This document shows, in pieces, positions 1-18,560 of a stretch of DNA of 64,000 bases. Under the pieces are notes generated by a model. That model was not told where the DNA came from and searched no databases. It saw only the letters and a program-made list of their open reading frames with translations. A program made the position numbers and the translations under genes. How positions within the stretch are numbered: position 1 is the first letter of the stretch; each line of letters opens with the position of its first letter. Location: positions 1,805,782-1,869,781 of the forward strand of contig OY969802.1 in assembly GCA_963703235.1 (NCBI GenBank), written 5' to 3'. Origin of the DNA: an uncultured Solirubrobacterales bacterium. Its GTDB lineage: Bacteria; Actinomycetota; Thermoleophilia; Solirubrobacterales; 70-9.

Positions 1-241
1 GGGCCAGCAGCGCCGGTGGTGGCGATGGCGAGCGGTCCTCCCCCAGCTCGATGGCTGCCAGGCCGTACTCGACCGCGGCACAGACAGCGGCTTTGAGCCC
101 TGCGGTGTAGTGGGTGTCGAGGGCAGCGGTATCGGCGACGGCGAAGACACGGGTGAGGACCGCCGTTTCGATCTCGGCTTGGCGGCCGCGCAGGCGGCTG
201 GGCAGCTCAGATGACGTTTGCTCGGCGCGCCGTCGCGGCAT
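1..241 (-). CDS. hypothetical protein, N-terminal part only (gene runs off the window start); possibly a regulator
   Basis: ATG at 241-239 lies 17 nt downstream of the NHL gene stop. My own translation stays open to position 1: MPRRRAEQTSSELPSRLRGRQAEIETAVLTRVFAVADTAALDTHYTAGLKAAVCAAVEYGLAAIELGEDRSPSPPPALLA. It is absent from the ORF track because no stop lies in the window. It faintly resembles N-termini of actinobacterial PucR/CdaR-type regulators, from weak recall only. Confidence 0.3.
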   Translation of the reverse strand, partial: MPRRRAEQTSSELPSRLRGRQAEIETAVLTRVFAVADTAALDTHYTAGLKAAVCAAVEYGLAAIELGEDRSPSPPPALLA

Positions 242-258
242 GGGCCGGACCCCCCTCC

Positions 259-2052
259 TCACCCCCGCGCCGTACAGCTGCGCGTCAGGGTCGCGCTCAG
301 CTCTCTGCCGCCGATGAAAGAGAAGGTGGCTTTGGCCAGCGGGAAGAGCGCCCCCGGGAAGCCCTTGGGCGCCGGGCAGCCGGCGGAGAGGAAGCTGCGG
401 CGCTCGCCGCGGAAGCCGAACCTGCGCCCGAGCTTCAGATCGATGCCAGTGACGTAGCCCCAATCGCCCGTGAGAGAGGCGAGCGAGACCTCGAGGCGGG
501 TGGCGAAGGTGCCCGTTCCGCGGCGGATCTGCAGCGGTAGGACGACCGAGGTGGGAACCGGCTTGGTGCCGTAGATATGGGCGAAGATCACCGGCTCCCC
601 CTTGAGCATGCCGTTGAAGGCGAGGACCTTGCCGGCCGATGGAAATGGCGACTGCTCCGGCAGGCGCACGGTGGCGGAGAACCGCCCTTCGCCGACCAGG
701 GCGGGGCGGCAGGCTTCGAGGGCCTGGGCGCTCGTCGAGGGGTCGATGTCGCTGAGGCGGCAGCGCTGCAGGCCGCGGGAATCGAGGCGTCCGCCCCGGT
801 TGAAGGCGAAGACCACCTTGCGAAGCTGCGGCGGGCTGTCGGGGTCGGTGGAGGTGATGTGGCCGCCGATCCTGACCGTGATCGGCGCGGTTCCCTTGCG
901 GGGCAGGCGCTTCGGCGCCAGGTCGCCGCTCACCGCGACCCGGATCGACCCCTTCTGCACCAGCTCGGCCCCCGCGCGCAGCGGCCGGGGATGGGCCGAG
1001 GTTGCCGCCGGCGCCGGCGGGCCAAGCGGAGCGCTCTGCGCAACGCCGCCGCCGAGCGGCTGCGAGGTCCCTTCCTGCGGCGGTCCGTGGATCGTCAGCC
1101 CGAAGCCCGAGTAAGGCGAGTACTCGAAGACGTTGGCTTTTTCGCCGTTGCCGTCGGTGACGTAGAGCGTGCCATCCGAGGCGACGGCGATGCCCGAGGG
1201 CTCGCCGACCACCGGGGCACCCGGAAGCTGCCCGAGGAAGGCGCCGGAGGAGTCGAACTCGTAGATCACCGCCTGGGGATGGGTGAAGCCGGGCTGGACG
1301 TTGTCGACCACGAGCAGGTTCCCGTTCGAGGGGTCCACCGCAAGTGCCGCGTCGACCAGCGAGACGAACTGACCCCTGAAGGTGTCCAAGCCGTCGATGA
1401 CGTCGACCGGGTCATCCGAGTCGCTGGCCGGTTCGTAGACCTCGATCACGTTTTGGTCCGCGTCGGGGACGTAGACGCGACCCTCGAAGGCGGCAAGGCC
1501 GTAGGCGTCGCCGAGGCTGCCGACCCCGATCAGGAGCGGTTCGCCCCCGTCCAGCACCGGCGCCCCGGAGGAGTCGTAGACCGCGACGTAGGTGCGGTCG
1601 TTGACGTAGAGGCGATCGGTGCTGCGGTCGACCGCGATCCCGGTCGTGTCGTCATCGTCGATCGTCACCGCCGGCAGCAGCCGCAGCGCCCGCTGGTGCC
1701 AGACGTTGACGTAGAGGCGACCGGTCGAGTCGATCGCGAGACCACAGGGGCCCTCGGGGGCGCTGGCGACGTGCATCCCGGACTGGTAGAGCCCCGAGCT
1801 CGAGAAGACGTGAACCCGCCCGTGGTAGTAGTCGGAGACGTAGAGGTCGCCGCCGGGAGCCACCGCCAGCCCGCAGGCGCCTTCGATCTGGCCTTCGGGG
1901 GGCGGGATCATGCTCGGGCCGGATTCTTTGGTGACGAGCATCGCTTTGGAGAGCAGCGATCGGTTCGCCTGCGCCGTCGCCGCACTCAAGACCAGCGCCA
2001 GCAGCCCCGCCAAGACCAGGTACCGCGTCGCCCGCTTTGCCTTCGACCTCAT
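259..2052 (-). CDS. secreted six-blade NHL-repeat beta-propeller protein with a C-terminal domain of about 240 aa of unknown function
   Basis: Uses an internal in-frame ATG of track ORF 259..4182. The 710 codons upstream are Arg/Pro-rich and overlap the next gene in another frame. Signal peptide MRSKAKRATRYLVLAGLLALVLSAATAQA. Six NHL-type blades: CGLAVAPGGDLYVSD, CGLAIDSTGRLYVN, GIAVDRSTDRLYVND, GLAAFEGRVYVPD, LAVDPSNGNLLVVD, GIAVASDGTLYVTD. ATGA overlap with the upstream stop at 2049-2052. Confidence 0.8.
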   Translation of the reverse strand: MRSKAKRATRYLVLAGLLALVLSAATAQANRSLLSKAMLVTKESGPSMIPPPEGQIEGACGLAVAPGGDLYVSDYYHGRVHVFSSSGLYQSGMHVASAPEGPCGLAIDSTGRLYVNVWHQRALRLLPAVTIDDDDTTGIAVDRSTDRLYVNDRTYVAVYDSSGAPVLDGGEPLLIGVGSLGDAYGLAAFEGRVYVPDADQNVIEVYEPASDSDDPVDVIDGLDTFRGQFVSLVDAALAVDPSNGNLLVVDNVQPGFTHPQAVIYEFDSSGAFLGQLPGAPVVGEPSGIAVASDGTLYVTDGNGEKANVFEYSPYSGFGLTIHGPPQEGTSQPLGGGVAQSAPLGPPAPAATSAHPRPLRAGAELVQKGSIRVAVSGDLAPKRLPRKGTAPITVRIGGHITSTDPDSPPQLRKVVFAFNRGGRLDSRGLQRCRLSDIDPSTSAQALEACRPALVGEGRFSATVRLPEQSPFPSAGKVLAFNGMLKGEPVIFAHIYGTKPVPTSVVLPLQIRRGTGTFATRLEVSLASLTGDWGYVTGIDLKLGRRFGFRGERRSFLSAGCPAPKGFPGALFPLAKATFSFIGGRELSATLTRSCTARG

Positions 2053-4874
2053 GCTCCCCTCCCTCCTTTGCGCTTGCCCTTCTTCCCGCAGCTCGCCCTC
2101 ACGACCGGTTGCCAGGCCCAGCCGCGGTCGTTGTGCCCGAGCAGGCGGGCGTTGCCGAGCGGCGAGTCCTGGCAGAGATCGCGGGCGGAGTTGACGAGGA
2201 TGCCGCGCTTGCCGCCGCGCATCCGCAGCACGAACTTGGTCACCGGGGCGTCCGGGATGACGTCGAAGCGGCCGCGGATCCCTCCCCGCACCGAGTCGAT
2301 CCGCCCGACCAGGTCGATCTCGAAGCCGCGGCCGCGGAGGGCGAAGACGACGTCCGGCAGCGGGTTGTCGGAGGAGCGCAGGTAGACCGGCCCTTCCAGC
2401 GGCACGTCGAGCAGCGGCGTGAAGGCCCGGGCGTGCCCGTAGATCGAGCCACGCGGGCAGGCGCCGGCCGCGAATTGGACCCTGGTGCAGATCGTCTCGA
2501 TGCTCTCCTGGTCGAGGAAGAGCGAGGGAGGCAGGGTCACCGCCGCCCTGGCGATGTTGGCGTCGCCGGGCCGCGGCCGCACCACCGCCCGCAACGAGGG
2601 ATGGGCGCCGCGCTTGGTGGCGCCGAGGAGGCGCATCGAGAGCCGCGGCCGGAAGCCGAGCGCGCCGCAGTTGAAGGCCTGGAACGGGACGGTCGCGGTG
2701 GCCAGGGTGTCGTCGCCGATGTCGGCCAGCCGCAGTCCGGCCCCGTTGAGGTTGGAGGACAGCGACTTGGGGGCGCAGCTCGTCGGGTTGATCGTGACCC
2801 GGGGGCGGTCGATGTAGGCGCGGACGTCCCTGAGGTGGACCGGGATGCCGTCGATGATGTGGGGGATCGGGTCGGTGCCGGTGGCGTCGATCGAGACCTG
2901 CCCGGTGCGGCGGTCGACGCGGATCGCCGAGCGGACGATCACCGTGCCGAGATCGAACGGCCCGACCAGGGCGGCGTCGATCGCCACCACCGAGAACTGC
3001 GAGCCCTTGTAGGGGCCGGCCAGGTAGAGGTTGCCGGGTGCGTAGGAGAGGACCGTGCCGAGGCCGTAACCGGCGAGCGTGCGACCGATCAGCGAACCGG
3101 CCGGGCAGCTCGGGCTGCGCAGCTCCTCGAAGCCCGACCTGTGCTTGGCCCGCTCCAGGTCGGCCTCCGAGCAGAAGGGCACGCCGGAGACGTTGCCGAG
3201 CAGGCCCGGCGGCAGGGTCGCCGAGTAGGAGACGACCTCCTGCTCGGTGTCCCTCCTCGTCAGGTGCAGATGGAACGGCGAGTAGGCGCCGGCCTGGGAA
3301 TTGAGGGTGCCGCCCGTCGCCTGCGGGACGAAGGGCGCCAGGCCCACCGGGCAGGGACCGCCGCCGGCGCCCGCGGTTATCGAGAGCGGCAGGGAGAGGT
3401 GCTTCGATTTGCCGGCGTCGAGCCAGGGGGTGAAGTCGGCCTCGGTGGAGAAGGTCCCGCAGGCCGCAGGCGTGGCCAGCGGGCTGCGCTGCCCTTCGCG
3501 GAAGTGCAGGTGCAGCTTCGAGTAGGGCAGCTGCGGCAGACGATCGAAGCTGGCGGTGAGGCTCCCGGTCCGCTGGTCGGGTCGCATTTCGCCGGCGACC
3601 TTGACGAGGACCCCCCACTGCTCGGACTTGGCGACGAGGTAGAGGGCGATCAGCGACCCGAACGGGTTGCGGAAGGGGGCGGCGAGGAAGATCGAGCCGC
3701 CGAGATGGCCGCTGTAGAAGGGGCTGTCGACGGTGAAGTCGCCGATCTTGGACTCGTTGGGACAGCCGGCCCCGGGCGGCGAGATGCCGGTCTCCGCCTG
3801 GAACTGCGTCCGCTCGCAGACGCCCAGACCGGCTCCCACCGAGGGGTTCACGGTCACCCCGTTGGGGAGCCTGACGAGGGCTTTGCGCAGCGGCGAGGGG
3901 GCGCGCCGATCGGGGTCGGTGAAGCCGGATGCGTCGACTTCGATGTTGAACTTGTAGCCCGAGGGGGAGGAGGCGCGCGGGTCCGAGAGATGGGTCGTCG
4001 CCCGGGGGTCGAAGTCGAGCGACTGGCACCCCTCCAGCGCCGGCCTGTCGAGCGTGCGGGTGGCGGCGGTCTCTCCCTCCCAGGAGGTGGCGGACGCGCC
4101 GAAGGAGAGCGGCGCGTCGCAGTAGGTGGGCATGGTCAGGTAGGCGATGGGCGGGTTTTTCAGCGGCCTGCCGATCGAGCATTTGGCCCAGCCGAAGGAG
4201 GGCTCGGCCTCGTTCAGGCAGTCGCCGCGCTGGTCGTTGTGGAGGATCGACCAGGGCACTCCCCAGATCGACAGCTCCAGGCCGGAAATGGCGAGGAGCT
4301 GGGGGACGTTCTCGGCCACCATCGTGACCCCGTACTCCCCCTCGGCCTGGCGCAGGGCCGGGATGAAGACGATCGGCGCGCCGTAGGGGTTCGCGCCAAC
4401 CTGCGAAGGCGCCCCCGGCGGCGGTTCGAGGTTGAACAACCCGAAGGTCCGCGTCTGGCCGCCGGCGAAGGAGGAGCGCACGGTGAGGATCCCGACCTGG
4501 CTTTTGTCCGGGCAGTTCTCGCCGGAGAGGCTCGCTTCGAAGGGAGAGGAGCGCGGGGTGTGGAAAAGAGCCTGCGAGCAGGTCGGGACGGCACGCTGGT
4601 TTTCGATCAGGCCCGGCGGCAACTCGAATTCGAGATCGCGCAGGTCGCCCTCGGTGAAGGGCGCCCCCACTTCCGCGCTCGGCTCAAAGCCGACGCTCAG
4701 CTCGAGCGCCACCGGGTGGGACCCGGCCTGGGTGGCGGGCGCGCCGCCCTCGGTCAGCACGGCGGCGTCGAAGCCCTGCGCCGCCGGCTGGAAGTCGAAG
4801 GCCCCGGCGCCGGGAGGCGCGATGGCCGCAGCGAGAAGGAGGCCGCAGAGGATCTGGCCGACGCGAGCCCTCAT
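2049..4874 (-). CDS. large secreted protein of an unrecognised family (B1; paralog of 10535..13849) with a Cys-polybasic C-terminal tail
   Basis: Track ORF of 941 aa with signal peptide MRARVGQILCGLLLAAAIAPPGAGA. Collinear motifs shared with B2: QAGSHP/QAGGHP, LYLAGPYKG, GPFDLG, VRSAIRVDRRTGQV/VRAALRVDPKTAQI, DAPVTKF..GGKRGILVNS..LC / DAPVSTF..GGKRGLVVNS..LC. Ends in CGKKGKRKGGRGA. ATGA overlaps at both ends. Confidence 0.8.
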   Translation of the reverse strand: MRARVGQILCGLLLAAAIAPPGAGAFDFQPAAQGFDAAVLTEGGAPATQAGSHPVALELSVGFEPSAEVGAPFTEGDLRDLEFELPPGLIENQRAVPTCSQALFHTPRSSPFEASLSGENCPDKSQVGILTVRSSFAGGQTRTFGLFNLEPPPGAPSQVGANPYGAPIVFIPALRQAEGEYGVTMVAENVPQLLAISGLELSIWGVPWSILHNDQRGDCLNEAEPSFGWAKCSIGRPLKNPPIAYLTMPTYCDAPLSFGASATSWEGETAATRTLDRPALEGCQSLDFDPRATTHLSDPRASSPSGYKFNIEVDASGFTDPDRRAPSPLRKALVRLPNGVTVNPSVGAGLGVCERTQFQAETGISPPGAGCPNESKIGDFTVDSPFYSGHLGGSIFLAAPFRNPFGSLIALYLVAKSEQWGVLVKVAGEMRPDQRTGSLTASFDRLPQLPYSKLHLHFREGQRSPLATPAACGTFSTEADFTPWLDAGKSKHLSLPLSITAGAGGGPCPVGLAPFVPQATGGTLNSQAGAYSPFHLHLTRRDTEQEVVSYSATLPPGLLGNVSGVPFCSEADLERAKHRSGFEELRSPSCPAGSLIGRTLAGYGLGTVLSYAPGNLYLAGPYKGSQFSVVAIDAALVGPFDLGTVIVRSAIRVDRRTGQVSIDATGTDPIPHIIDGIPVHLRDVRAYIDRPRVTINPTSCAPKSLSSNLNGAGLRLADIGDDTLATATVPFQAFNCGALGFRPRLSMRLLGATKRGAHPSLRAVVRPRPGDANIARAAVTLPPSLFLDQESIETICTRVQFAAGACPRGSIYGHARAFTPLLDVPLEGPVYLRSSDNPLPDVVFALRGRGFEIDLVGRIDSVRGGIRGRFDVIPDAPVTKFVLRMRGGKRGILVNSARDLCQDSPLGNARLLGHNDRGWAWQPVVRASCGKKGKRKGGRGA

Positions 4875-7111
4875 CGGTGCCCGCTCCCGCGCCTGGCCTG
4901 CTTGCCCGCGCCTCTGCCGCGCTGGCGCTGGCCGCGCTTCTTGCGCTTGGACTTCTTCTTCGGCCCGAAGTAGCGGGGCGACGGGTTGCCGGCGTTGGGC
5001 GTGAGCGTGCCCGGGCTGGGATCGTCGGGCGGTGCTGGCAGGCTCTGGCAGGCGTCGGCGATGCAGGCGATCGGTTTGAGCACCGCCGGGAAGCCGCCGC
5101 CGATCCTGGCGTCGTAGAGGTCGATCGAGCCGGGGTCCTCGGCGACCAGGGACTCGTCGGTGAGGAAGTAGACGTCAGAGCCATCCTCGCTCGCGTCGAC
5201 GAATGAGGCCCCCTCGGTCGCCCGGCCGCTGGAGATCAGGCGCACGCAGCCCGGCGAGCGCTGGCAGTCCCCCACCCCGTCGGCCTCCCACTGGTAGACG
5301 TCGGGGTGGGAGTTGGTGTCGCCGACGACCAGCTTGTCGGCGGACTCGAAGAAGAGGCGGTTGCCGCCGGCGGCGAGGGCGCGCGGCTTGTAGGCGGCGG
5401 TACTGCCGTTGACGAGCGCGCCCGGGAGCGAAGCGGGCCCCTGGGAGCGTTCGCCGGTCGGGTTGCAGGAGGCGCAGATCAGCCGCGCGGCGCCACCTGC
5501 GGGCGCTGGCCCGTACAGGTAGGCCTCCATCTGCCCGGCGTTGTCGAAGGCGGCAAGTTCCTGCGAGGAGAGGAAGGCCAGGTGCTCGCCGCTGGCGCTG
5601 ATCCGCGCGGTCCCGCTGGCGGGGGGGTGATTGCTCGGGGCGACGGCCGGACCGGCGGCGATCGTGGTCGTCGCGCCTTCGTGCCATTGCTTCAGCCCGA
5701 CGGCGTCTTGGTAGTAGAGGTAGGCGCCGTTGGCGGAGGCGCCGAGCACTCCGACCACGCCGCCCGCCGGCGTCAGATCGATAACCGCTTTGCTGGCCGC
5801 CGCGAAGCGGTGGACGTGGCCCGCCTTGGTGAAGAAGGCGAGCGATCCATCGGCGCTGATGGTCTGGAACGCCCCCCCTCCCCCTACCGCTTCGTCCACC
5901 CAGAAACTCTGGCCGCCATCGCGCAGGTAGAGGTTGCCGTCCAGCGTCCAGTACACGCGCGAGCCGTCAGCCGACACCGCCCCGATCGGGGCCGCGATCT
6001 GCGCCCCCGGCGTCCCGGTTCCGTCCCCCGGCAGCAGGTTCAGCAACGCCAGCCCGGCGGCCGAGCGCAGGTAGAGGTTCTGGGCGTCGGCGTCGCACCG
6101 CCCCGGCCCGTCCGGCACCTCGGTCGCGTTGACGCTGAGCGCCGCGCAGCTCGCGAGCACGATGTGAGCGAGGTCGGGGCTGGCGGCGGCGAAAGAGGCC
6201 TCGAAGGCTTCGTGGGAGACCGAAGTGTGGGCGAGATCGGCCGGGGCGAGCAATGAGGCGAAGGAGCCGCTCGCGTTGTCCCGCAAGTAGTAGGCCATGT
6301 GCCCGGGCGGCGCGCCCGAGCCCGGGATGACCGGGGTCGGTGCGGGACAGCCGGCGAGGCCGCCACGGCAGGCGAGGCCGCCGGAGAGCAGCCCCCGGCC
6401 GAGATCGGCGGAGAACAAACGGTAGGGAGCCCCGTCCGGATCGTCGCCGTAGGCGCCCGAGGCGGTCGGCGGGGAGAGGTTCTCGCTGCTCCAGCCCGCG
6501 GCGGTCCTGCGGGCGAGGTACTGGGAGGCCGGCGGCGCGCCCTGCGGCGACCCGAACGCACTGGCGGAGCTGTAGGTGAGGGCGCCCCCGGCGGCGGCGG
6601 CCTGGAAGTGACCGCCGCCGAAGAGGGCGCCCGGGGCGGCGATCGAGCCGCCGCCTTTGTCGGCGGGCGAGACGAGCTCCCAGCCGCGATCGTCCGGAAG
6701 GCCGAAGGTCGCCGTGCTCTCCTGGGTGGCGAAGATGCGCTCGGGGCCGGTGGCAACGTCATCGGCATTGGTGGCCACCGCCCGGAAGCGGTAGGCGGTG
6801 GCCGGGACGAGGCCGCCGACGTGCTGGACTACCGCCAGCGCCGAGGTCCCCGAGCCGAGCGGCGCCTGCCCCGAGACCGGCGCTTTCGCGGCGGCGGCAA
6901 AGCCACTCGCTTCATAGGCAGCCTGGGTCACGTACTCGACGCGGTAGGTGCTGGAGGGGCCGTTGGGTTTGATCGACGCCCGCAGGTTGGCGCCGGTGGC
7001 GGTGACATCGGTGACCCAGCTTTCGACGATCTGCGGCGGCGCCGCCTGGGCGGGGGTAGACGTGAGCGCCAGGGCGCCGGCGGTCAGAGCGAGAGCAGCC
7101 TTTGCCTTCAC
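4871..7111 (-). CDS. secreted FN3 plus PD40/TolB-like propeller protein (C) with a Cys-rich C-terminal module and polybasic tail
   Basis: Track ORF of 746 aa, GTG start. Signal peptide MKAKAALALTAGALALTSTPAQA. N-terminal FN3-like domain (TATGANLRASIKPNGPSSTYRVEYV...TAYRFRAVATN). The C-terminal module CASCNPTGE...DVYQWEADGVGDC...DLYDARIGGG...CIADAC is shared with the A proteins. Tail is PKKKSKRKKRGQRQRGRGAGKQARRGSGHR. Confidence 0.8.
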   Translation of the reverse strand: MKAKAALALTAGALALTSTPAQAAPPQIVESWVTDVTATGANLRASIKPNGPSSTYRVEYVTQAAYEASGFAAAAKAPVSGQAPLGSGTSALAVVQHVGGLVPATAYRFRAVATNADDVATGPERIFATQESTATFGLPDDRGWELVSPADKGGGSIAAPGALFGGGHFQAAAAGGALTYSSASAFGSPQGAPPASQYLARRTAAGWSSENLSPPTASGAYGDDPDGAPYRLFSADLGRGLLSGGLACRGGLAGCPAPTPVIPGSGAPPGHMAYYLRDNASGSFASLLAPADLAHTSVSHEAFEASFAAASPDLAHIVLASCAALSVNATEVPDGPGRCDADAQNLYLRSAAGLALLNLLPGDGTGTPGAQIAAPIGAVSADGSRVYWTLDGNLYLRDGGQSFWVDEAVGGGGAFQTISADGSLAFFTKAGHVHRFAAASKAVIDLTPAGGVVGVLGASANGAYLYYQDAVGLKQWHEGATTTIAAGPAVAPSNHPPASGTARISASGEHLAFLSSQELAAFDNAGQMEAYLYGPAPAGGAARLICASCNPTGERSQGPASLPGALVNGSTAAYKPRALAAGGNRLFFESADKLVVGDTNSHPDVYQWEADGVGDCQRSPGCVRLISSGRATEGASFVDASEDGSDVYFLTDESLVAEDPGSIDLYDARIGGGFPAVLKPIACIADACQSLPAPPDDPSPGTLTPNAGNPSPRYFGPKKKSKRKKRGQRQRGRGAGKQARRGSGHR

Positions 7112-10100: not shown

Positions 10101-10531
10101 GTGCGGAAGGCGTCGTTCGGGCAGGGGTCGAAGAGAGGCGGGGGCAGATGGGTGGTGAAGGTGCGCTCGGGGCCGACGGTCGGGCCCGAGGGGCTGGAGG
10201 CGCGCAGGCGGTAGTGGTAGGTGGTGGCGGGAGTGAGGCCTTCTATCTGCACGGAGACCGGGACGCCTTTGTCCCCGGCGGGGATGGTTGGCGGGGAAGC
10301 GGGCGCTTTGGTCGGATTGGCGAAGCCTTCTGCTTCATAGCCCGCCTCATCGACGTAGTCGAGCTGGTATTTCGTCGGTTTTTCTTCTGGGTTTACGGTC
10401 GCCGCGATCGTCGCCGAGGTTTCTCCCACCTGGGTTGCCGCGGTGTTCGAGATCAGGGGTGGGCCGGCGGCTTGGGCTAGGGACGCGAGGGATAGGGATA
10501 GGGCTGCGAGGGCGAGGGTGATGCGACTCAT
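7108..10531 (-). pseudogene. frameshifted paralog (A1) of the 13846..17343 FN3/YWTD-propeller gene
   Basis: Track ORF 7430..10531 is collinear with A2 until ...CLDVYMWEAEG, then goes out of frame. The DNA reads ggagccagAAtccttc at 7531-7546 against ggagccagAtccttc at 14293-14307, so there is one extra base at 7539/7540. Downstream sequence 7143-7538 is essentially identical to 13905-14299. In the corrected frame it reads through to a TGA at 7108-7110 that overlaps the GTG of the next gene. Confidence 0.6.
7143..10475. repeat. segmental duplication, copy 1 (pairs with 13905..17250)
   Basis: By-eye alignment shows long blocks identical to copy 2 (for example 7143-7538, about 8040-8500 and about 8700-8960). 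These blocks are interrupted by diverged patches such as about 8500-8700. Confidence 0.85.
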
Positions 10532-10534
10532 GCC

Positions 10535-13500: not shown

Positions 13501-13849
13501 CTAACAGCGTCCTGCTCGGGGGCAGGGGTTCCGTGGCGGTGCAGGTGACCGTCTGGGCGACGACGCCACAGCTCAGGCCCCCCGAGCCTCCCGCGTCGAT
13601 CGGGGTAAGGCCGGTGGGCAGAGTGTCGGTAAGAGTGATTTCGCCACTGGTGGGGGCGGCACCGAAGTTGCTGGCGAAAAGAGTGTATTCGAGGTCTTTG
13701 CTTGCTCCAGGGGCGAAGTTGGTCGGCACCGAGGTCAGGGTGAGCTTCCAGGCAGGGGCCGGTTCCGCCGCCCCTGCAGTCGCGGGAAGGAGTGCCAGGA
13801 GCGCAAGGACGGCGCTGAGAGAGACAAGTGAGGCGGTGCGGCGGATCAT
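10535..13849 (-). CDS. large secreted protein of an unrecognised family (B2; paralog of 2049..4874) with an extra N-terminal DUF11-like repeat domain and a Cys-polybasic tail
   Basis: Track ORF of 1104 aa with signal peptide MIRRTASLVSLSAVLALLALLPATAGA. The N-terminal LTDTLPTGLTPIDAGG..LSCGVVAQTVTCT pattern is typical of DUF11/conserved-repeat domains. The remainder is collinear with B1. Ends in CKGKKRKAQGNRRRAR. ATGA overlap with the A2 stop. Confidence 0.8.
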   Translation of the reverse strand: MIRRTASLVSLSAVLALLALLPATAGAAEPAPAWKLTLTSVPTNFAPGASKDLEYTLFASNFGAAPTSGEITLTDTLPTGLTPIDAGGSGGLSCGVVAQTVTCTATEPLPPSRTLLVTISLEVGPLAEGSTVTNTATISGGGAAATQASTTTTISSNPAPFNFLAGEAGLFAPLTDVDGTPVTQAGGHPYQLMVGVGFPGERPSHFESLTGTEHPREVSIDLPPGVLGNPSALRTRCTEAQLNSQQFPGKGGCPESSQVGTIDVMAPLAGISFFYDSALYSMVPPPGAPAAFAFDAFGAGIFVHVIPSVRSDSDYGISARAGDILALDYHPLLGAQTGLWGDPSHPGHDNRRKTCLVPGPGDPPCPVEEPNTEAFLTMPGHCPGKPTVTKAHATSWEQPSVDQTAIYESSDLAGNPVSVEGCNALQFEPTISSQPTTNLADSPSGLEFELHQPQNTDLEGLSTAILKDATVTLPKGMAVNPSQADGLAVCTKEQIDLTTAVGETPAHFSKHPSECPDASKLGTVEVTSPLLAQYDEKQEVQRDPEGKPIPEPLHGSLYLAEPYQNPFESLIAIYLTVEDEKTGIFAKLAGEVIPDPVTGQLTTRFEENPQLPLEDVKLSLFGGARAPLITPPVCATHTTTSDLTPWSSPEGEDANPSDSFQTSVAPGGVACPSAEVGAPNAPSFSAGTIAPQAGSYSPFVLKLSRSDGSQRLAGIEATLPPGLSGKLAGVATCSEAQIATARARSNPLEGILEKKSPSCPASSELGTVDVAAGAGISPLHVEGRAYLAGPYKGAPLSIAVITPAVAGPFDLGVVVVRAALRVDPKTAQIHAVSDPLPTILEGVPLDVRQISMHMGRPQFTLNPTSCDPMQIAGIVTSALGQNASLFSPFQVGGCSQLPFKPKLSLRLKGGTKRADHPKLVATLRAKPGEANIAKAQVKLPRSAFLDQAHIRTICTRVQFAADSCPKGSIYGKATATTPILDYPISGNVYLRSSDNELPDLVVDLRGPAHQPIRIELAGRTDAVKGALRNSFDLLPDAPVSTFRLELFGGKRGLVVNSQNLCARKRRATVKLDGQNGMVFDSRPLVRSDCKGKKRKAQGNRRRAR

Positions 13850-16800
13850 CGGCGTGCTCCCTGGTTGGCGTTTGCTCGGTTGTGCTTTCGGTTGCGCTGT
13901 TTTTGCCCCGCGCAGCGGCCCCTGCCTTTCGCGCGCGCCACTCGCTTGCGCTTCGCGCAGCGCGGTTTTCCGTTGCGCCCGTCGGGGTTGGGGGGACCGA
14001 CGAAGCTGGCGCTGCCGGGCGAGGGGCTTACCGGCGGCGGGGTCGGCGCCGGTTTGCAGGCATCTGCCTCGCAGATCGGCGGCGGCGGCTGGTTCTGGGC
14101 AGCAAGACCGCCCTCTACGCGGACGTCATAGACGTCTCGCAGCGCGTCCTTGTCCTGGCCGACCAGCTGCTCGGTGGTGAAGAGGAAGGCGTCATCGCCG
14201 CTCGCGGAGGCGTCGGCGAAGAGCGAGGGCTCGCTGCTCTCGCCGTTGGAGAGCAGGTAGAGACAGCCGCCGTTGGAGAAGGTGCCTTCGCAGGAGCCAG
14301 ATCCTTCTGCCTCCCACATGTATACGTCTAGGCAGGTGGGGAAGATCTGGTTTTTCGAGCCGCTCCGCGGGCAGCCGTCCAAGCCGTTGACGTCGGCACC
14401 GACCAGCGCGTCTGTCGTCTCGAAGAAGACCCGCTCGCCGTCGGCGGAGAGGTTTCGGGTCGTCAGCGCTGATCCCCGCGCGGGAACCAGCGCCGACGGG
14501 GTCATCCTCGCCAGCGTCGGTATTCCCGTCGGCGGCGCGACGCTCGGCGCCGCCCCGGTCGGGTTGCAGGAGACGCAACTGAGGCCCTCCCCCACCCGGT
14601 AGCGGTAGAACTGCGGGACGCCTTCGTTCTCGTACTCGCTGAGCTTCTCCTGGGAGCGGAAGAGCAGGGTTTGCCCGTCGGGGCTGACGCGGGAGGTCTT
14701 CTGGAAGCTGTTGAGAGTAAGGCCCATCTGCGGGGTCGCAGAAGCCGACCAATTGGCCACGTCGCTCTTGCCCATCTCACCCGTTGCGTCGAGCCGCACG
14801 ACGAAGCTGATCTGCGCCCCGCCGCCTTCCATTTCGCGCCAGAGGTAGAGGTTGCAGTTGCCGCTCCCGCCCGCCACCGGCCCCTCGCAGTTCCCCGGCG
14901 TCGCCGGCCCGCCCCCATCGAGGTCGCCGTTGGCGGCGAAGTAGACGTGGGTGCCGTCCTGGGAGATGCCGAGCACTCCCTGGACGTCGGCGCCGTTGGC
15001 ATCGTCGGTGTCGAGGACCAGGTCAGACAGCTTCTCCCCCGTCGCGCTGTGGTCGTAGCGGTAGAGGTCGTTGCCCGCGTTGGGGACGACCTCCTGGTTG
15101 GCCGACCAGTGGATGTGGGTGGGGTCGACCGCCAGCCCCTGCGGGTGCCTGGCGCCTTTGACGAATTCCAGCTCGACTTCGGTGATCGCGCCCGGGTTGT
15201 TGAGTTTGGCCCGCCCGATCACGTCGTTTTTCTCATCGGCCCAGTAGAGCCGGTCGCCAGCGACGGCGATGCCGCGGAAGCGGTCGCTTTCGCTCGTGAA
15301 GAGGAGCACGGCGATGCCTTTCGGTTCGGCCAGCGGGACCCGCCGTATGCCTCCGGCGATGCCTTGGGTGAAGTAGAGGTAGGTGGCGTCGAGCACCACT
15401 CCCGCCGCGTTAAAACCGAAGGGCTCGCCGCCTTCATCCACCGTCCAGGGCTGGATCACTTCCCCGCCTTCGATCGTGGCGCGGGCGATGCCCTTAGTGA
15501 GGAAGGGAAATACAGTGCCGCTCCCCGCGTTCGCCCAGTAGATGTGAGTAGTGTTGACCGCGATCCCCTGCGGGTTGTGAGCACCGGTGATGAAGCTCGG
15601 TTTGACTTCTTCGCCGTCGAGCTCCGCCCGCCCGATCGTGCCGTTGCCGTTCTGGCCGTCGACGGCGTCGGTCCAGTAGACGTGTTCGGAGTCGGTCGTC
15701 ACCCACTGGGGTTTGACGGGAGCTTCGATGAAGCTCGGGTCGACTTCGGTCGTGCCGTCGAGGGTGGCGCGGCCGATCGTGCCGGCTTTGGGGTCGGCCC
15801 AGTAGACGTGGGAGCCGTTCACGGCGACCCCCAAGGCGGAGGCGGGAAGGAAGCCGAGGTCTTTGCCTTCGCCTTCCAGGTTCGCACGGGCGATCGCCGG
15901 CGCTTCTGGTTCGGGCCCGGTAGTGGCGTCGTCGGTCAGCTTCTCCGAGGAGGTGAAGAAGGTCTTGGTGCCGTCTTGGCTGGCGCCCATGAAGGCGGCG
16001 GGCTGGGTTCCGGCGGCGTCGCTTCCTTCGAACCCTGAGCCGTTGGTCTTCGCGGTCGCCGAGACGTGGATCGTGCAGGCCTTGGCCGCTTCGGTGCAGT
16101 TGCCTTCGATGTCGAGCGCGCTCTGTGGCTGGCTCGGGTTGAGGCGCAGGTAGAGCTGCCCGGTTCCCGCTGCGGTGAAGTAGAGCGAGCCCTCGGGGGT
16201 TACGGCGCGCTGTTCCTGGAGGTAGTAGCTGCGCGCGGTGCCGCCGGTTGAGAGGGTGGCCGGGCTGACGCCTTTCACCCAGTCATAGGGGCCGGCGAAG
16301 GCGCCTTGGGGGGGGCTCTGGCCGTCGTTTAGGACGCTGGCGAGGCCGATCTCGCCGCTGTCGCGATCCCAGGCGTAGAGGTTGGAGTCCCCTTCGAGAG
16401 CCGCTGGGGTCAGTTTGGCGTCGGCTTCGAAGATCGCCTTGGAGCCGTCGGCGGAGGCGCCGGCGTAGCGGGGGGCCAGGCCGGGGGTGTAGTCGACGAT
16501 CGTCTCCAGCGGCCCACCGTCGCCGGGGCGCCTCAGGAGCGTCGTCAGCTCGGGTTCGGTCAGTTTGGTCGCCTCGTCGAAGACCGCCGAGAAGTCGGGC
16601 AGCCAGCCGATCGCGTGGGCCTTCTGGCCGGTTGCCGCGGGGGGCAGGAGGCCTTCGGTGAACCAGCCTCCTGCGCCGCGGCTTGCCAGGTAGAGGGGCA
16701 TTTCCTGGGAGCCTTCTGCGCCGGGGAAGCCGGCGTCGCTCATGAAGGTGATGCCGTTGCCCGTGGGCGTCGCCTGGACAAAGGAGGAAAAGCCGATCGC

Positions 16801-17343
16801 GTGGCCGCCGTTCTTCTGCACGGGGGAGGCCTGCTCATAGGCGCGGCAGTCGGGAAGGTGGGCGGAGGGCAGATCAGTGCGGAAGGCGTCGTTCGGGCAG
16901 GGGTCGAAGAGAGGCGGGGGCAGATGGGTGGTGAAGGTGCGCTCGGGGCCGACGGTCGGGCCCGAGGGGCTGGAGGCGCGCAGGCGGTAGTGGTAGGTGG
17001 TGGCGGGAGTTAGGCCTTCGATCTGCACGGAGACCTCAACGCCTTTGTTCCCGGCGGGAATGGTCGGCGGGGAAGCGGGCGCTTTGGCGGGATTGGCGAA
17101 GCCTTCTGCTTCATAGCCCGCCCGATCGACGTAGTCGAGCTGGTATTTCGTCGGTTTTTCTTCTGGGTTTACGGTCGCCGCGATCGTCGCCGAGGTTTCT
17201 CCCACCTGGGTGGCTTTGGTGTTGGAGATCAGCGGCGGGCCGGCGGCTTGGGCGGGGGGGGCTGCGAGGGAGAGGGCTAGGGAGACGAAGAGAGCAGTGA
17301 GGATCGTGCGGCCCCGTGCCGAACCTCTTAGCTGGTGCGTCAT
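13846..17343 (-). CDS. secreted FN3 plus six-blade YWTD-type beta-propeller plus PD40-like protein (A2) with a Cys-rich C-terminal module and polybasic tail
   Basis: Track ORF of 1165 aa with a signal peptide ending ...LSLAAPPAQA. FN3-like N-terminus (TSATIAATVNPEEKPTKYQLDYV...TTYHYRLRAS). Six blades: HVYWAD, HVYWTD, HIYWAN, YLYFTQ, RLYWAD, HIHWSAN. C-terminal module CVSCNPTG...DVYMWEAEGSGSCEG...DVYDVRVEGG...ICEADAC. Tail CAKRKRVARAKGRGRCAGQKQRNRKHNRANANQGARR. Confidence 0.85.
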   Translation of the reverse strand: MTHQLRGSARGRTILTALFVSLALSLAAPPAQAAGPPLISNTKATQVGETSATIAATVNPEEKPTKYQLDYVDRAGYEAEGFANPAKAPASPPTIPAGNKGVEVSVQIEGLTPATTYHYRLRASSPSGPTVGPERTFTTHLPPPLFDPCPNDAFRTDLPSAHLPDCRAYEQASPVQKNGGHAIGFSSFVQATPTGNGITFMSDAGFPGAEGSQEMPLYLASRGAGGWFTEGLLPPAATGQKAHAIGWLPDFSAVFDEATKLTEPELTTLLRRPGDGGPLETIVDYTPGLAPRYAGASADGSKAIFEADAKLTPAALEGDSNLYAWDRDSGEIGLASVLNDGQSPPQGAFAGPYDWVKGVSPATLSTGGTARSYYLQEQRAVTPEGSLYFTAAGTGQLYLRLNPSQPQSALDIEGNCTEAAKACTIHVSATAKTNGSGFEGSDAAGTQPAAFMGASQDGTKTFFTSSEKLTDDATTGPEPEAPAIARANLEGEGKDLGFLPASALGVAVNGSHVYWADPKAGTIGRATLDGTTEVDPSFIEAPVKPQWVTTDSEHVYWTDAVDGQNGNGTIGRAELDGEEVKPSFITGAHNPQGIAVNTTHIYWANAGSGTVFPFLTKGIARATIEGGEVIQPWTVDEGGEPFGFNAAGVVLDATYLYFTQGIAGGIRRVPLAEPKGIAVLLFTSESDRFRGIAVAGDRLYWADEKNDVIGRAKLNNPGAITEVELEFVKGARHPQGLAVDPTHIHWSANQEVVPNAGNDLYRYDHSATGEKLSDLVLDTDDANGADVQGVLGISQDGTHVYFAANGDLDGGGPATPGNCEGPVAGGSGNCNLYLWREMEGGGAQISFVVRLDATGEMGKSDVANWSASATPQMGLTLNSFQKTSRVSPDGQTLLFRSQEKLSEYENEGVPQFYRYRVGEGLSCVSCNPTGAAPSVAPPTGIPTLARMTPSALVPARGSALTTRNLSADGERVFFETTDALVGADVNGLDGCPRSGSKNQIFPTCLDVYMWEAEGSGSCEGTFSNGGCLYLLSNGESSEPSLFADASASGDDAFLFTTEQLVGQDKDALRDVYDVRVEGGLAAQNQPPPPICEADACKPAPTPPPVSPSPGSASFVGPPNPDGRNGKPRCAKRKRVARAKGRGRCAGQKQRNRKHNRANANQGARR
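13905..17250. repeat. segmental duplication, copy 2 (pairs with 7143..10475)
   Basis: Same evidence as copy 1. Identical blocks 13905-14299, about 14815-15280 and about 15476-15735, with diverged patches between them. Confidence 0.85.
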
Positions 17344-17381
17344 TTTAGTTCCTCTCGCAACGCTCTTAGCTGGTGTGTCAT
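17340..17381 (-). other. 13-codon upstream ORF (MTHQLRALREELK) created by tandem duplication of the A2 RBS and start region
   Basis: Units 17325-17358 and 17363-17398 are near-identical, so GAGAGGAAC-TAAAA(AA)-ATGAC(G/A)CACCAGCTAAGAG occurs twice. The distal ATG at 17381 opens a 13-codon frame. Its TGA (17342-17340) overlaps the A2 ATG (17343-17341). Confidence 0.3.
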
Positions 17382-17468
17382 TTTTTAGTTCCTCTCGCCG
17401 CGACAGCTCATCGCGATGTGGATGAGCCCGGACAGTTGCGAGCCATCCAGGCTCATCCCCTTCGTCGA

Positions 17469-18296
17469 CTAAGGAGCCAGTTCAGCGGTCACGGCCCAAG
17501 CGCCGTACGCAAACCAGTCTTCGGTCGGTTCGAATTTGAGGAGGGCGCCGCTCTCGCTGGCGGCGTCTTCGACGACGGCGCTGAGGGTAAATATTTTCGG
17601 TGCCAGAGTGCCGGATAGCGCGGCTTCGAATACGCACAGCTCACCCGGGGCGGCGACCGGGTTGTTGACGCCCCCTTCGGGACCACACTCGGGGTTTTCT
17701 TCAAGGATCTGTTCGAAGAAGGTGACGAAGTGGACATCGTCTTCCCCCAGCTCCGAGGCCAGTTTGATCGGGAAGGAGATCGAGGTATAGGCGGTCGCGG
17801 GCGACGCAGGACCGCTCGCAGCCCAGGCCCCCGTCAAGGTCGCGCCGGGGGGAAGCTCGTTGTCGGGGACCCAGGGTTTGCCATCTTCGCCGGCCTCGCC
17901 CTGTTCGCCGTTGCAGATTTCGGTGCTGGCTTGCCCTTCGACCATGACGCCGCCTCGTCCTCCGCATTCAGGGTCGCCGAATTCGATTTCGGTGGCGGTG
18001 ACGGATTTGCCGGCGGCGCCAGGATCGCCTTTGGCGCCTTTTTCGCCATTGGCTCCGTTAGCACCGTCTTTGCCGTTGGCACCGGCGGGTCCTTGCGGCC
18101 CGGCCGGTCCGGCGGGACCGGCCGGGCCCGGTTTACCGGGTTTTCCCGGTTTGCCCGGTTTGCCCCTTTTGGCGGAGGCGGTGGCGCCGTCGCCTGAGTC
18201 GTTGGCGGCGTAGGCGCCGCCGAGCATCGCGAAGACGAGGGCGATCACCGAGATCGCGCCCGGGATGCCGAAGCGGTTGCGTAGCGGTGAGAGCAT
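17469..18296 (-). CDS. membrane-anchored collagen-like (GXY repeat) protein with a Cys-containing C-terminal globular domain
   Basis: Track ORF of 275 aa. N-terminal hydrophobic anchor GAISVIALVFAMLGGAYA, then 18 uninterrupted GXY triplets (GKPGKPGKPGKPGPAGPAGPAGPQGPAGANGKDGANGANGEKGAKGDPGAAGKS). RBS ggagaagag lies upstream of the ATG. Confidence 0.8.
   Translation of the reverse strand: MLSPLRNRFGIPGAISVIALVFAMLGGAYAANDSGDGATASAKRGKPGKPGKPGKPGPAGPAGPAGPQGPAGANGKDGANGANGEKGAKGDPGAAGKSVTATEIEFGDPECGGRGGVMVEGQASTEICNGEQGEAGEDGKPWVPDNELPPGATLTGAWAASGPASPATAYTSISFPIKLASELGEDDVHFVTFFEQILEENPECGPEGGVNNPVAAPGELCVFEAALSGTLAPKIFTLSAVVEDAASESGALLKFEPTEDWFAYGAWAVTAELAP
18003..18164 (-). repeat. collagen triple-helix GXY coding repeat, including a 4 x 9-bp tandem (GGNAAACCN = GKP) at about 18127-18165
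   Basis: Read directly from the translation and from cccggtttaccgggttttcccggtttgcccggtttgccc. Confidence 0.85.
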
Positions 18297-18560
18297 CTAG
18301 AATCTCTTCTCCTTGTCCCGTGAGCCCCTCTGCCGGCCGCTTCCCTTGGCGGCTCCCGTGAAGCTCGGTTATGTCCCTGAAGCCCTGCCCGTCCCTACGA
18401 GCTGAACTGTTCCGTACATGGAACAACCAGAAAGATAGACAGTTGCGGACATAAAAGTCAAGCGAGGTTCGCAAAAGCGTCACGACAGGCACGAGCGAGG
18501 CCGTTCCCAAGACCGCTGCGATCCCTTCGCTGTGGGGAAAACCTGGGTACGCGCGTGTCT

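Follow-up and report, generated by a model that had tools for sequence, protein, structure and literature searches.

A lineage-specific operon family of large secreted propeller and Ig-like proteins in uncultured Solirubrobacterales: a candidate head-and-stalk surface system

Gene organization of the locus

The window, that is the whole stretch of 64,000 nucleotides of an uncultured Solirubrobacterales bacterium that was analysed, carries at positions 259-18296 seven co-directional minus-strand genes in the order COL-A2-B2-A1-C-B1-NHL (Table 1). The open reading frames agree in number, succession and size with an earlier note made from the sequence, and direct reading of the junctions confirmed the four 4-nt start-stop overlaps and the single 3-nt gap reported there. 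Overlaps of start and stop codons are frequent in high-GC operons and are no proof of a complex. A sigma-70-like promoter candidate upstream of COL is the sole such site in positions 1-19000; about 0.7 sites are expected by chance, and the promoter evidence is consequently weak. The COL-A2-B2-A1 half of the cluster has a lower GC3. The neighbours of the cluster include genes for a Fic protein and a DUF4143 ATPase, both of which match candidate defence families in PADLOC.

Table 1. Features of the cluster and their positions in the window
Feature	Position	Strand	Evidence or remarks
COL, 275 aa	17469..18296	minus	ORF; Pfam Collagen; PDB profile search
A2, 1165 aa, putative head	13846..17343	minus	ORF, Pfam, PDB profiles, AF2, Foldseek
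A2 FN3-like beta-sandwich, aa ~38-139	16927..17232	minus	Profile matches and AF2
A2 YWTD (LDL-receptor class B) six-bladed propeller, aa ~483-748	15100..15897	minus	Pfam, PDB profiles, Foldseek
A2 polybasic C-terminal tail, aa ~1120-1165	13849..13986	minus	Two flanking Cys residues
B2, 1104 aa, putative stalk	10535..13849	minus	Signal peptide, CLIPPER/DUF11, R1-R4, short polybasic tail
B2 CLIPPER/DUF11 (CnaA-like) domain, aa 34-155	13385..13750	minus	Pfam and Foldseek
B2 repeat modules R1-R4	10574..13375	minus	R1 aa 159-428, R2 429-680, R3 681-895, R4 896-1092
A1, paralog of A2	7108..10531	minus	93.3% DNA identity over ~3.39 kb
C, 746 aa, putative head	4871..7111	minus	GTG start; no YWTD insert
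B1, 941 aa, putative stalk	2049..4874	minus	R1-R4, short polybasic tail; no CLIPPER
NHL protein, 597 aa	259..2052	minus	Signal peptide, NHL propeller aa ~50-320, basic C-terminal domain
A2/B2 junction	13846-49	minus	ATGA overlap, read directly
B2/A1 junction	10532-34	minus	3-nt gap, TAG GGC ATG
A1/C junction	7108-11	minus	GTGA overlap, read directly
C/B1 junction	4871-74	minus	ATGA overlap, read directly
B1/NHL junction	2049-52	minus	ATGA overlap, read directly
Sigma-70-like promoter candidate upstream of COL	18432..18461	minus	TTGACT, 18-nt spacer, TATCTT

Domain composition of the encoded proteins

The putative head A2 is composed of a signal peptide, an FN3-like domain, a PD40-type propeller into which a YWTD propeller is inserted, a Cys-rich C-terminal region, a Pro-rich linker and a polybasic tail. 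Its FN3-like domain matched PDB FN3 profiles with E-values of 1e-7 to 1e-3 and was modelled by AF2 with a pLDDT of 80-89; its matches to Pfam fn3 and Pur_ac_phosph_N fell below threshold, as did those of all the FN3-like N-terminal domains of the cluster proteins. The inserted propeller is a genuine propeller of the LDL-receptor type: Ldl_recept_b scored 48.4 bits in A2 and 51 in A1 (Pfam cutoff 21), the propellers of LRP6, LRP4 and LDLR were matched by A2 with E-values of 1e-30 to 1e-12 in PDB profile searches, and Foldseek gave a TMt of 0.62-0.63 against single LRP6 propellers. C is built of a signal peptide, an FN3-like domain, a PD40-type propeller and a polybasic tail, and aligns to A2 at aa 25-219 and aa 501-746. 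Further paralogs on the same head scaffold swap in NHL propellers or lose the YWTD insert.

A1 is an additional copy of A2 that is recent and has undergone recombination, and no B gene is paired with it. Its frame is broken by one extra T near position 7540 (GGATTCTGG versus GGATCTGG), the longest open piece being 1033 aa (7430-10531); removal of the extra T restores a protein of 1140 aa whose reading frame closes in the GTGA shared with C. Identity between A1 and A2 forms a mosaic in which blocks with dS near 0 alternate with blocks with dS of 0.31-0.43 (dN/dS 0.3-0.5).

The B proteins had been labelled as having an unknown fold. This label no longer applies, as B2 is resolved by Pfam, AF2 and Foldseek into a CLIPPER/DUF11 domain and four Ig-like repeat modules. 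DUF11 (PF01345) was detected in B2 only, with 29.5 bits against a gathering threshold of 24.6, and the N-terminal domain of B2 superposes on 9ifr in Foldseek with a TMt of 0.84, an rmsd of 2.4 and 25% identity. The CLIPPER domain has been described as a stalk domain of fibrillar adhesins (bioRxiv 10.1101/2025.04.25.650565). Residues K35, D75 and N134 of B2 occupy plausible isopeptide-triad positions, K35 and N134 being unconserved in a consensus of 22 sequences. The repeat modules, of ~200-270 aa, each contain a conserved C...CP cysteine pair and are homologous to one another by hhalign (probabilities of 96.4% for R1-R2, 96.6% for R1-R3, 97.0% for R2-R3 and 97.7% for R2-R4); none of them matches a Pfam family.

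The AF2 model of B2 is all-beta (pLDDT 78.7). Its best Foldseek matches are the Ig-like domains of PrgB (E 3e-12) and antigen I/II C123, followed by complement MG domains and integrin legs; the whole-chain TM of these matches is 0.1-0.2, which indicates similarity at the level of domains only. B1 shares 40% identity with B2 along B2 aa 161-1089 and has no Pfam match. B is accordingly an all-beta chain of homologous Ig-like beta-sandwich modules that resemble in structure the stalk domains of Gram-positive adhesins.

COL matches the Pfam Collagen family (PF01391) with 38.3 bits against a cutoff of 27.2 and contains an unbroken run of 17 G-X-Y triplets (aa 45-95). Its N-terminus has a conserved hydrophobic segment, either a signal peptide or a signal-anchor, and its C-terminus an acidic globular domain of ~175 aa with a pI of 4.05. 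No relative of this last domain was found by sequence in the PDB, the profile matches spanning the collagen part only. The propeller of the NHL protein scored 56 bits in Pfam (cutoff 20). The C-terminal domain of the same protein (aa 341-597, positions 262-1032) has a pI of 11.1; in related genomes it is found on its own too, as a secreted protein of ~260 aa. The collagen, YWTD, NHL and FN3 modules had thus been correctly named beforehand, the first three exceeding their Pfam cutoffs and the FN3-like domains remaining below theirs.

Export signals, C-terminal tails and search for anchors

All seven N-termini display a basic n-region, a hydrophobic core and an AxA-type site, as judged by eye from the N-terminal sequence. 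These signal peptides, together with the 16-20 cysteines per protein, many of them invariant in A, and the 10 conserved cysteine pairs of B (all present in B2), support the earlier view that the proteins are exported. A, B and C carry conserved Lys/Arg-rich C-terminal tails on acidic bodies: across 22 B and 27 A homologs, the median K+R content of the tails is 36-40% and the pI of the bodies 4.5-4.9, the A family having values of 40% and 4.5, respectively.

No LPXTG-like motif outside the signal peptides and no C-terminal hydrophobic segment is present in A, B or C, and sequence inspection and scans against Pfam and NCBIfam found no LPXTG, SLH or transmembrane anchor in these proteins. The same scans of the cluster proteins yielded no recognized adhesive domain or anchor, no domain known from S-layers or wall binding, such as SLH, CWB2 or SlpA, and no enzyme, ATPase, sortase, usher or transporter family above cutoff, which bears out the earlier remark that enzymes and secretion machinery are lacking. 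A sortase-dependent pilus was considered and rejected, as there is no LPXTG sorting signal, no pilin motif and no sortase among the scanned window genes or the recurrent neighbours. Known anchors are missing from about half of the predicted fibrillar adhesins (PMC8286594), so that a new type of anchor is not far-fetched, and our guess, made by analogy, is that the polybasic tail might serve as one.

Conservation of the operon in other genomes

The cluster represents one member of a lineage-specific family of operons in uncultured soil Solirubrobacterales. Representative genomes contain at least 592 loci of the B family, and all loci that carry a title come from MAGs of uncultured Solirubrobacterales or 'Actinomycetes'. 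Of 121 B genes examined, 102 are immediately preceded by a gene of the A or C type; the other 19 have no detectable upstream match, and several of them are situated at contig ends. The overlap is exactly 4 nt at 87 of the 102 A/C-to-B junctions. Distances were calculated from the start codon nearest the upstream stop, a procedure that favours short distances but cannot yield one exact value in 85% of junctions, and the 4-nt overlap is therefore more than a product of chance. The partners are also type-specific, YWTD-bearing A being paired only with CLIPPER-bearing B (28/28) and B1-type genes following C-type genes (23/23), both being raw counts uncorrected for shared ancestry.

The neighbourhood check suggested in the earlier note, which asked whether homologs would never be co-located, gave a clear answer: they are co-located, and the pairing of A or C with B and their tight coupling hold across hundreds of loci. 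The repeated pairing described there needs to be modified, since the A-B and C-B pairs are conserved but A1 has no B of its own and the usual unit is (collagen-like)-A-B2-C-B1-NHL. Similarly, COL does head the cluster in the window, but only about one locus in four was found to start with a collagen-like gene. At one locus another small secreted protein takes its place.

The family is abundant within genomes as well as among them. One MAG contains four operon copies with 97-99% identity, some genomes carry four, and at least nine A paralogs reside on one 3.0-Mb contig; the complete chromosomes listed measure 2.5-3.0 Mb, and the operon represents a sizeable share of these genomes. The B family comprises more than 900 clusters at 90% identity among the matches listed, the A family more than 1,700 and the NHL proteins more than 1,100, and the NHL C-terminal domain has 1,457 cluster representatives at 50% identity. 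The flanks of the operon vary between genomes and include housekeeping genes. Arrays of TetR-type regulators adjoin many cassettes in other genomes, and one locus has integrase and toxin-antitoxin genes nearby.

The literature searched yielded nothing on the operon, on the cell surface of Solirubrobacterales or on S-layers of Thermoleophilia, and the earlier failure to match the cluster to a described system was repeated here.

Proposed function and alternative explanations

We propose, giving it about an even chance, that the cluster encodes paired, adhesin-like head-stalk surface complexes that are held non-covalently on the wall and change their repertoire through domain shuffling, operon duplication and gene conversion. 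Each head, A or C, would consist of an FN3-like domain and a PD40-type propeller, with optional YWTD or NHL propellers as interchangeable ligand-binding modules, and would be translated together with a stalk B made of an optional CLIPPER domain and the four Ig-like modules. The products would be Sec-exported, disulfide-rich proteins, and head and stalk would pair outside the membrane. The pair may be kept on the Gram-positive envelope by its Lys/Arg-rich tails and by the basic NHL C-terminal domain, all binding anionic wall or membrane polymers, and the collagen-like protein, where present, may contribute a trimeric rod of ~15 nm. The function would be to bind external ligands or surfaces, in the manner of a fibrillar adhesin split over two genes. 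Stoichiometric co-assembly at the cell surface into a fibril, an adhesin or a sheath, as put forward in the earlier note, may likewise be envisaged. A more far-reaching version, which we regard as doubtful, would make A-B and C-B obligate heterodimeric head-and-legs surface receptors resembling an integrin ectodomain divided between two genes. The Cys-flanked polybasic tail would hold them on the wall as a type of anchor not described before, and a collagen-like membrane-anchored trimer would accompany them where present. They would form a lineage-defining surface organelle whose specificity would change as cassettes are duplicated, propellers exchanged and genes converted, all controlled by TetR arrays.

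The proteins could instead be co-expressed but independent soluble exoproteins, either lectin-like scavengers or lactonase- or lyase-like propeller enzymes acting on soil substrates, with the coupling only balancing expression and the basic tails binding substrates or soil particles. Six-bladed propellers may also be enzymes, and sub-threshold matches to enzymatic propellers do occur (Vgb_lyase, 27 bits against 50; SGL; strictosidine-synthase-like; ScyE/ScyF). This explanation would also accommodate the absence of a recognized anchor and the TetR-type arrays, which suggest ligand-responsive induction. We nevertheless consider it rather unlikely. No enzyme match comes near the YWTD match in strength, and YWTD propellers are binding modules, not enzymes; B consists, over its ~1100 aa, of nothing but Ig-like domains; and simple co-expression would require neither so strict a pairing, nor overlaps of exactly 4 nt, nor partners matched by type.

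The cysteine content bears on a second alternative, an S-layer or sheath-like two-dimensional coat with a lattice composed of A/B and C/B as subunits, in which the multiple copies would allow the coat to vary. S-layer proteins are typically cysteine-poor, in contrast to the 16-20 cysteines of each cluster protein. Large acidic secreted proteins with basic, possibly wall-binding ends would suit such a coat, and charge-based anchoring is known from Lactobacillus S-layer proteins; the paralogous cassettes could supply the variation, and the heavy genomic investment also fits. However, the lack of SLH, CWB2 or any other S-layer domain in Pfam and NCBIfam scans, the propellers on Ig-like chains with their domain shuffling, which resemble binding proteins, and the silence of the literature on Thermoleophilia S-layers make a coat improbable.

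A mobile-element, phage-derived or anti-phage module, such as tail-fibre-like receptor-binding proteins or a surface shield, is very improbable: phage fibres also have collagen-like repeats and Ig-like chains (BFVD matches), and the Fic and DUF4143 neighbours, the integrase and toxin-antitoxin genes at one locus and the lower GC3 of half of the cluster could be read in its favour, but there are zero homologs in 50,697 phage records and 72,556 plasmids, PADLOC has no match for the six intact cluster proteins, the flanks are variable and partly housekeeping, and the BFVD matches are generic multi-Ig ones with a TM of at most 0.17.

Solirubrobacterales are abundant in soil and poorly cultured. 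If the head-stalk proposal is correct, the operon would define how these organisms contact their environment, a two-gene head/stalk design and possibly a new non-covalent anchor would join the repertoire of Gram-positive surface proteins, and a new Ig-like repeat family and a new basic domain would both deserve a Pfam entry. If it is wrong, and the products are for example soluble scavengers, the family would still rank among the largest groups of uncharacterized secreted proteins in a major soil lineage.

Comparison with known systems

Like Scl1/Scl2, BclA and Lcl, COL has an N-terminal signal, an uninterrupted G-X-Y run and a globular non-collagen domain; unlike them, it has only 17 triplets, no LPXTG and an unusually conserved hydrophobic N-terminal segment. 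It is not an equivalog of Scl1, Scl2 or Lcl, as its scores of 34.6, 34.2 and 16.4 bits are far from the NCBIfam cutoffs of 325, 400 and 500. The NHL protein, which is secreted and has an NHL propeller, resembles ScyD/ScyE/ScyF, and NCBIfam matches it to them weakly, with 48.6 bits against a cutoff of 350; it has no PEP-CTERM signal and no scytonemin genes nearby.

A shares with the LDL-receptor family and Sevenless/ROS1 the extracellular combination of an FN3-like domain with a genuine YWTD six-bladed propeller. It differs from them in being bacterial and in having no EGF, LDL-A, transmembrane or kinase part, and its YWTD propeller sits mid-sequence in a PD40-type scaffold, so that the resemblance is at the domain level only. 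The integrin alpha ectodomain, with a propeller head on thigh and calf legs, offers the same head-on-legs logic, and its legs are among the Foldseek matches of B; head and legs are here separate gene products, and the parallel is meant as a working analogy, with no claim of membership or of sequence homology.

A fibrillar adhesin is defined by stalk domains, an adhesive domain and surface anchoring (PMC8286594). B possesses tandem Ig-like repeats, with CLIPPER in B2, as such a stalk; it has no adhesive Pfam match on the same chain, the candidates (YWTD, NHL and PD40 propellers) being on A, C and the NHL protein, and the cluster proteins have no known surface anchor. B does not belong to the antigen I/II or PrgB family, having no AgI_II_C2 or Antigen_C match in Pfam or PDB sequence searches and no A/P repeats, V domain or LPXTG. 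With the Gram-positive fibrillar adhesins of the antigen I/II, PrgB and CLIPPER/DUF11 types the cluster nevertheless shares a Sec signal peptide, a long Ig-like chain with CLIPPER in B2, fast diversification with many paralogs, and the top structural matches of B. It departs from them in having no LPXTG, sortase signal or known anchor, in the position of R1-R4 outside Pfam, in the isopeptide Lys/Asn positions of CLIPPER adhesins, which are not conserved in the B family consensus, and above all in its architecture, the putative head being a protein in its own right, coupled in translation to the stalk, where those adhesins have it at the N-terminus of one chain.

Organization of the gene cluster and its surroundings

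ORF listing and translation yielded the seven consecutive minus-strand genes described in the earlier note, and the junction sequences match the 4-nt overlaps and the single 3-nt gap reported there. They encode a collagen-like protein (COL), the propeller-bearing 'head' proteins A2, A1 and C, the 'stalk' proteins B2 and B1, and an NHL protein. Shine-Dalgarno-like purine-rich stretches are located within the upstream genes at the junctions. Judged by eye, the N-termini of all seven proteins resemble Sec signal peptides, in agreement with the signal peptide or N-terminal anchor proposed for each.

Genes and junctions of the cluster, in window positions
Feature	Position	Strand	Description	Basis
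COL	17469-18296	-	275 aa	ORF listing and translation
A2	13846-17343	-	1165 aa	ORF listing and translation
B2	10535-13849	-	1104 aa	ORF listing and translation
A1	7108-10531	-		ORF listing and translation
C	4871-7111	-	746 aa	ORF listing and translation
B1	2049-4874	-	941 aa	ORF listing and translation
NHL	259-2052	-	597 aa	ORF listing and translation
Junction overlap	13846-49	-	ATGA	sequence
Junction overlap	7108-11	-	GTGA	sequence
Junction overlap	4871-74	-	ATGA	sequence
Junction overlap	2049-52	-	ATGA	sequence
Junction gap	10532-34	-	3 nt	sequence

Among the domains first proposed, Collagen, YWTD (Ldl_recept_b) and NHL scored above threshold in Pfam/NCBIfam, while the FN3-like call found only weak matches, as did PD40. 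DUF11 was above threshold in B2 only, and B1 had no match in either collection. The Pfam and NCBIfam scans of the cluster proteins turned up no family of enzymes, ATPases, sortases, ushers or transporters, which bears out the initial impression. A cellulosome-like cohesin/dockerin logic was rejected, since Pfam gave no such match in these proteins.

The remainder of the window is ordinary chromosome (topA, tmk, holB, class II RNR, serS, a two-component system and an ABC/FtsX exporter), and a search of the whole window for Rfam families gave nothing above threshold. A Fic-domain protein (18561-20054, minus strand; PADLOC SoFic / PDC-S04, E 1e-14) lies directly upstream of COL, and a DUF4143 AAA ATPase (20151-21422, minus strand; PADLOC PDC-S01, E 7e-76) is also upstream of the cluster; the two are candidates for defence or mobile genes. 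Also on the minus strand are a 1083-aa ORF (22561-25812, high GC3 of 0.92), whose single match, of its N-terminus to phosphoribosyltransferase, is weak and sub-threshold, and, just past the 3' end of NHL, the start of a gene (1 to ~240, beginning MPRRRAEQTSSELPSRLRGRQAEIETAVLTRVF) cut by the left window edge. GC3 is 0.73-0.85 in COL, A2, B2 and A1 (7541-18296) and 0.90-0.93 in C, B1 and NHL (259-7111), the housekeeping genes of the window having 0.86-0.98; from this contrast, each half of the cluster may have its own history or level of expression. Between COL and A2, a tandem duplication of ~39 nt (17321-17398, minus strand) copies the ribosome-binding site and first six codons of A2, creating a 13-codon upstream ORF (17381 to 17340, MTHQLRALREELK) that ends in a TGA overlapping the start codon of A2 (ATG, 17343). 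This ORF may encode a coupled leader peptide or be no more than a scar of the duplication.

Relationship between A1 and A2

The A1 gene, said to be frameshifted and to encode about 1140 aa, is interrupted by one extra T near 7540 (minus strand) within a TT run; without it, the product has 1140 aa and ends in the overlap with C. Because the related MAGs derive from long reads, an error of 1 nt in such a run is indistinguishable from a very recent mutation. The frameshift could be an assembly error and not the mark of a pseudogene, if this assembly was likewise made from long reads.

The two paralogs (A1 7139-10503 compared with A2 13900-17282) share 93.3% DNA identity over ~3.39 kb. Blocks with dS near 0 (aa 550-640, 700-850 and 950-1130) alternate with blocks where dS is 0.31-0.43 (aa 400-550, 640-700 and 850-950), and dN/dS is 0.3-0.5 throughout. 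Judged from this substitution pattern, the pair is a patchwork produced by recombination or gene conversion between A1 and A2, with both paralogs under purifying selection.

B proteins resemble Ig-like stalks

The AF2 model of B2 is all-beta (pLDDT 78.7, pTM 0.67). Its best Foldseek match in the PDB is to the Ig-like domains of PrgB (E 3e-12), followed by antigen I/II C123, the MG domains of complement and alpha-2-macroglobulin, and integrin alpha legs and mastigonemes. Over whole chains the TM scores are low, consistent with a flexible chain of several domains. The N-terminal domain superposes on the crystal structure of CLIPPER (DUF11; 9ifr) with a TMt of 0.84. [quoted passage not shown]

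Profile-profile comparison resolves the other ~930 residues of B2 into four homologous modules, R1-R4 (probability 96-98%), each with an invariant C...CP pair; B carries 10 invariant cysteine pairs in total. No Pfam family or PDB sequence covers R1-R4 in the Pfam and PDB profile searches. The only PDB profile matches of B, to autolysin repeats, were rejected as weak, spurious and confined to the CLIPPER region. The B family, initially regarded as unrecognised, therefore has a known fold class, that of Ig-like stalks, but its repeat family is undescribed.

Propeller, collagen-like and NHL proteins

In the PDB profile search A strongly matches the YWTD propellers of LRP2, LRP4, LRP6 and LDLR, with E values of 1e-12 to 1e-16 for single-propeller LDLR/LRP8 chains and 1e-26 to 1e-30 for two-propeller LRP6 fragments. 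The AF2 model of A2 (pLDDT 73, pTM 0.70) consists of an FN3-like sandwich, propeller blades and a disordered tail; Foldseek relates it to the multi-propeller ectodomains of LRP2, LRP6 and ROS1/Sevenless and to tricorn, and against single YWTD propellers TMt is ~0.6. The C protein aligns to the N- and C-terminal parts of A and lacks the central YWTD region. Elsewhere, paralogs place at least one NHL propeller before the FN3 domain and may have or lack the YWTD insert, which indicates a conserved scaffold on which propeller modules are exchanged.

COL combines a strongly conserved hydrophobic N-terminus ending AYA-A and 17 G-X-Y triplets with a C-terminal domain that is variable and contains Cys. 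Its PDB profile matches are collagen triple helices and concern the collagen part only, including the match to BclA; the search gave no sign of a head of the C1q or BclA type in the C-terminal domain. A type IV pilin-like signal was rejected by eye (G10 followed by IPGAI, with proline at +2 and no Glu at +5). The C-terminal domain of NHL shares a C...C..VG pattern with B, but hhalign gave no support for its assignment as a B-type repeat (E 0.015-0.6, probability <=3%). Clustering at 50% identity leaves 1,457 representatives of this domain, either standalone (~260 aa) or NHL-fused.

The C-terminal tails of A and B are polybasic: Lys and Arg make up a median of 40% of the last 45 residues of A (27 homologs; body pI 4.5) and 36% of the last 25 residues of B (22 homologs; body pI 4.9). 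The C-terminal domains of NHL and COL have pI values of 11.1 and 4.05, respectively. Neither an LPXTG-like motif outside the signal peptide nor a C-terminal hydrophobic segment was found in the cluster proteins.

The cluster belongs to a large operon family

Homologs form more than 900 clusters for B2, more than 1,700 for A2 and more than 1,100 for the NHL protein. Among the 120 B2 matches listed, length is ~1100 aa and identity 54-63%, and B2 homologs are named 'hypothetical' or 'uncharacterized repeat protein' in their sources. A scan with one genome per species gave at least 592 B loci. All 76 loci kept are titled as uncultured Solirubrobacterales, Conexibacteraceae or 'Actinomycetes' MAGs, the complete chromosomes among them measuring 2.5-3.0 Mb.

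Mapping of the window proteins onto these 76 loci and two others placed an A- or C-type gene directly before B for 102 of the 121 B genes examined, the junction being a 4-nt overlap in 87 of the 102 and a 1-nt overlap in five; the remaining 19 B genes had no detectable upstream match, several being at contig ends. Co-location thus extends to other genomes. The order [COL]-A-B2-C-B1-NHL, with COL optional, recurs in more than 20 loci, so the cluster in the window is this canonical unit with A1 as a single additional gene. The repeated pairing of a propeller protein with a B protein proposed in the earlier note accordingly stands for the recurrent A/C-B pairs and fails for A1, which lacks its own B partner. 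Pairing is also type-specific: YWTD-bearing A genes are found before B genes of the CLIPPER-bearing type only (28/28) and B1-type genes always follow C-type genes (23/23), in counts that ignore shared ancestry. COL, which heads the cluster in the window, could be detected before A in about one quarter of loci, and in one locus (L001) another small secreted protein occupies its position.

Neighbour counts in the related loci are lower bounds, because the GC3-based gene caller misses lower-GC3 or frameshifted genes. In 22 loci, three or four genes for TetR-family regulators (~227 aa each, with double-TetR proteins of ~440 aa besides) are arrayed immediately upstream of A (e.g. L078:~3000-6000, L051, L063, L065, L073 and L077). 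A secreted, Cys-containing protein of ~298 aa (cluster 4) without a Pfam match is found just downstream of B in A-B-type loci (L001:13346-14242, L001:15757-16662, L005, L018, L021 and L035), and standalone copies of the NHL C-terminal domain are recurrent neighbours. The TetR-type regulators and the cluster 4 protein were looked for in the window and are absent from it.

Four copies of B2-C-B1-NHL occur in each of two MAGs, MFD10043.bin.1.19 (L016, L019, L020 and L028; 97-99% protein identity) and MFD06298.bin.2.59 (L052, L053, L057 and L061; 83-92%). Several of these copies are at contig ends, so multi-copy units probably break assemblies. Among the best 120 matches, at least nine A paralogs lie on one 3.0-Mb contig.

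Possible function and comparison with known systems

We infer that heads (A/C) and stalks (B) pair physically into complexes, which would be kept on the cell surface via their polybasic tails and would work as fibrillar adhesins encoded by two genes. This reading, to which we give an even chance, best accommodates the export signals, the disulfide-type cysteines, the Ig-like B, the binding-type propellers of A, C and NHL, the strict type-specific pairing with conserved overlap, the conserved polybasic tails without a known anchor, the multi-copy recombining cassettes and the lack of enzyme, machinery, mobile-element or defence signatures. That the products act as independent soluble exoproteins or propeller enzymes is unlikely. 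An S-layer or sheath-like coat is quite improbable, given the high cysteine content and the absence of S-layer domains from the cluster proteins. A mobile-element, phage or defence module is highly improbable: tblastn of the cluster proteins found no match in the phage or plasmid collections, BFVD fold matches were generic and PADLOC had no match to the six intact cluster proteins. What probability remains falls to functions outside these readings.

Our literature searches on collagen-like, S-layer and beta-propeller proteins of Solirubrobacterales/Thermoleophilia returned nothing relevant, and those on this protein family or the surface structures of this lineage returned nothing. The cluster represents a large, conserved and uncharacterised family, in which an unusual design over two genes goes with a candidate new mode of anchoring.

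At the domain level, everything belongs to known families except the B repeats and the C-terminal domains of COL and NHL. Of known systems, the Gram-positive fibrillar adhesin comes closest. B differs from it in two of the three usual features, having no adhesive domain on the same chain and no known anchor. About half of predicted fibrillar adhesins likewise have no known anchor (PMC8286594). The third feature, the stalk, is the one that B shares with these adhesins.
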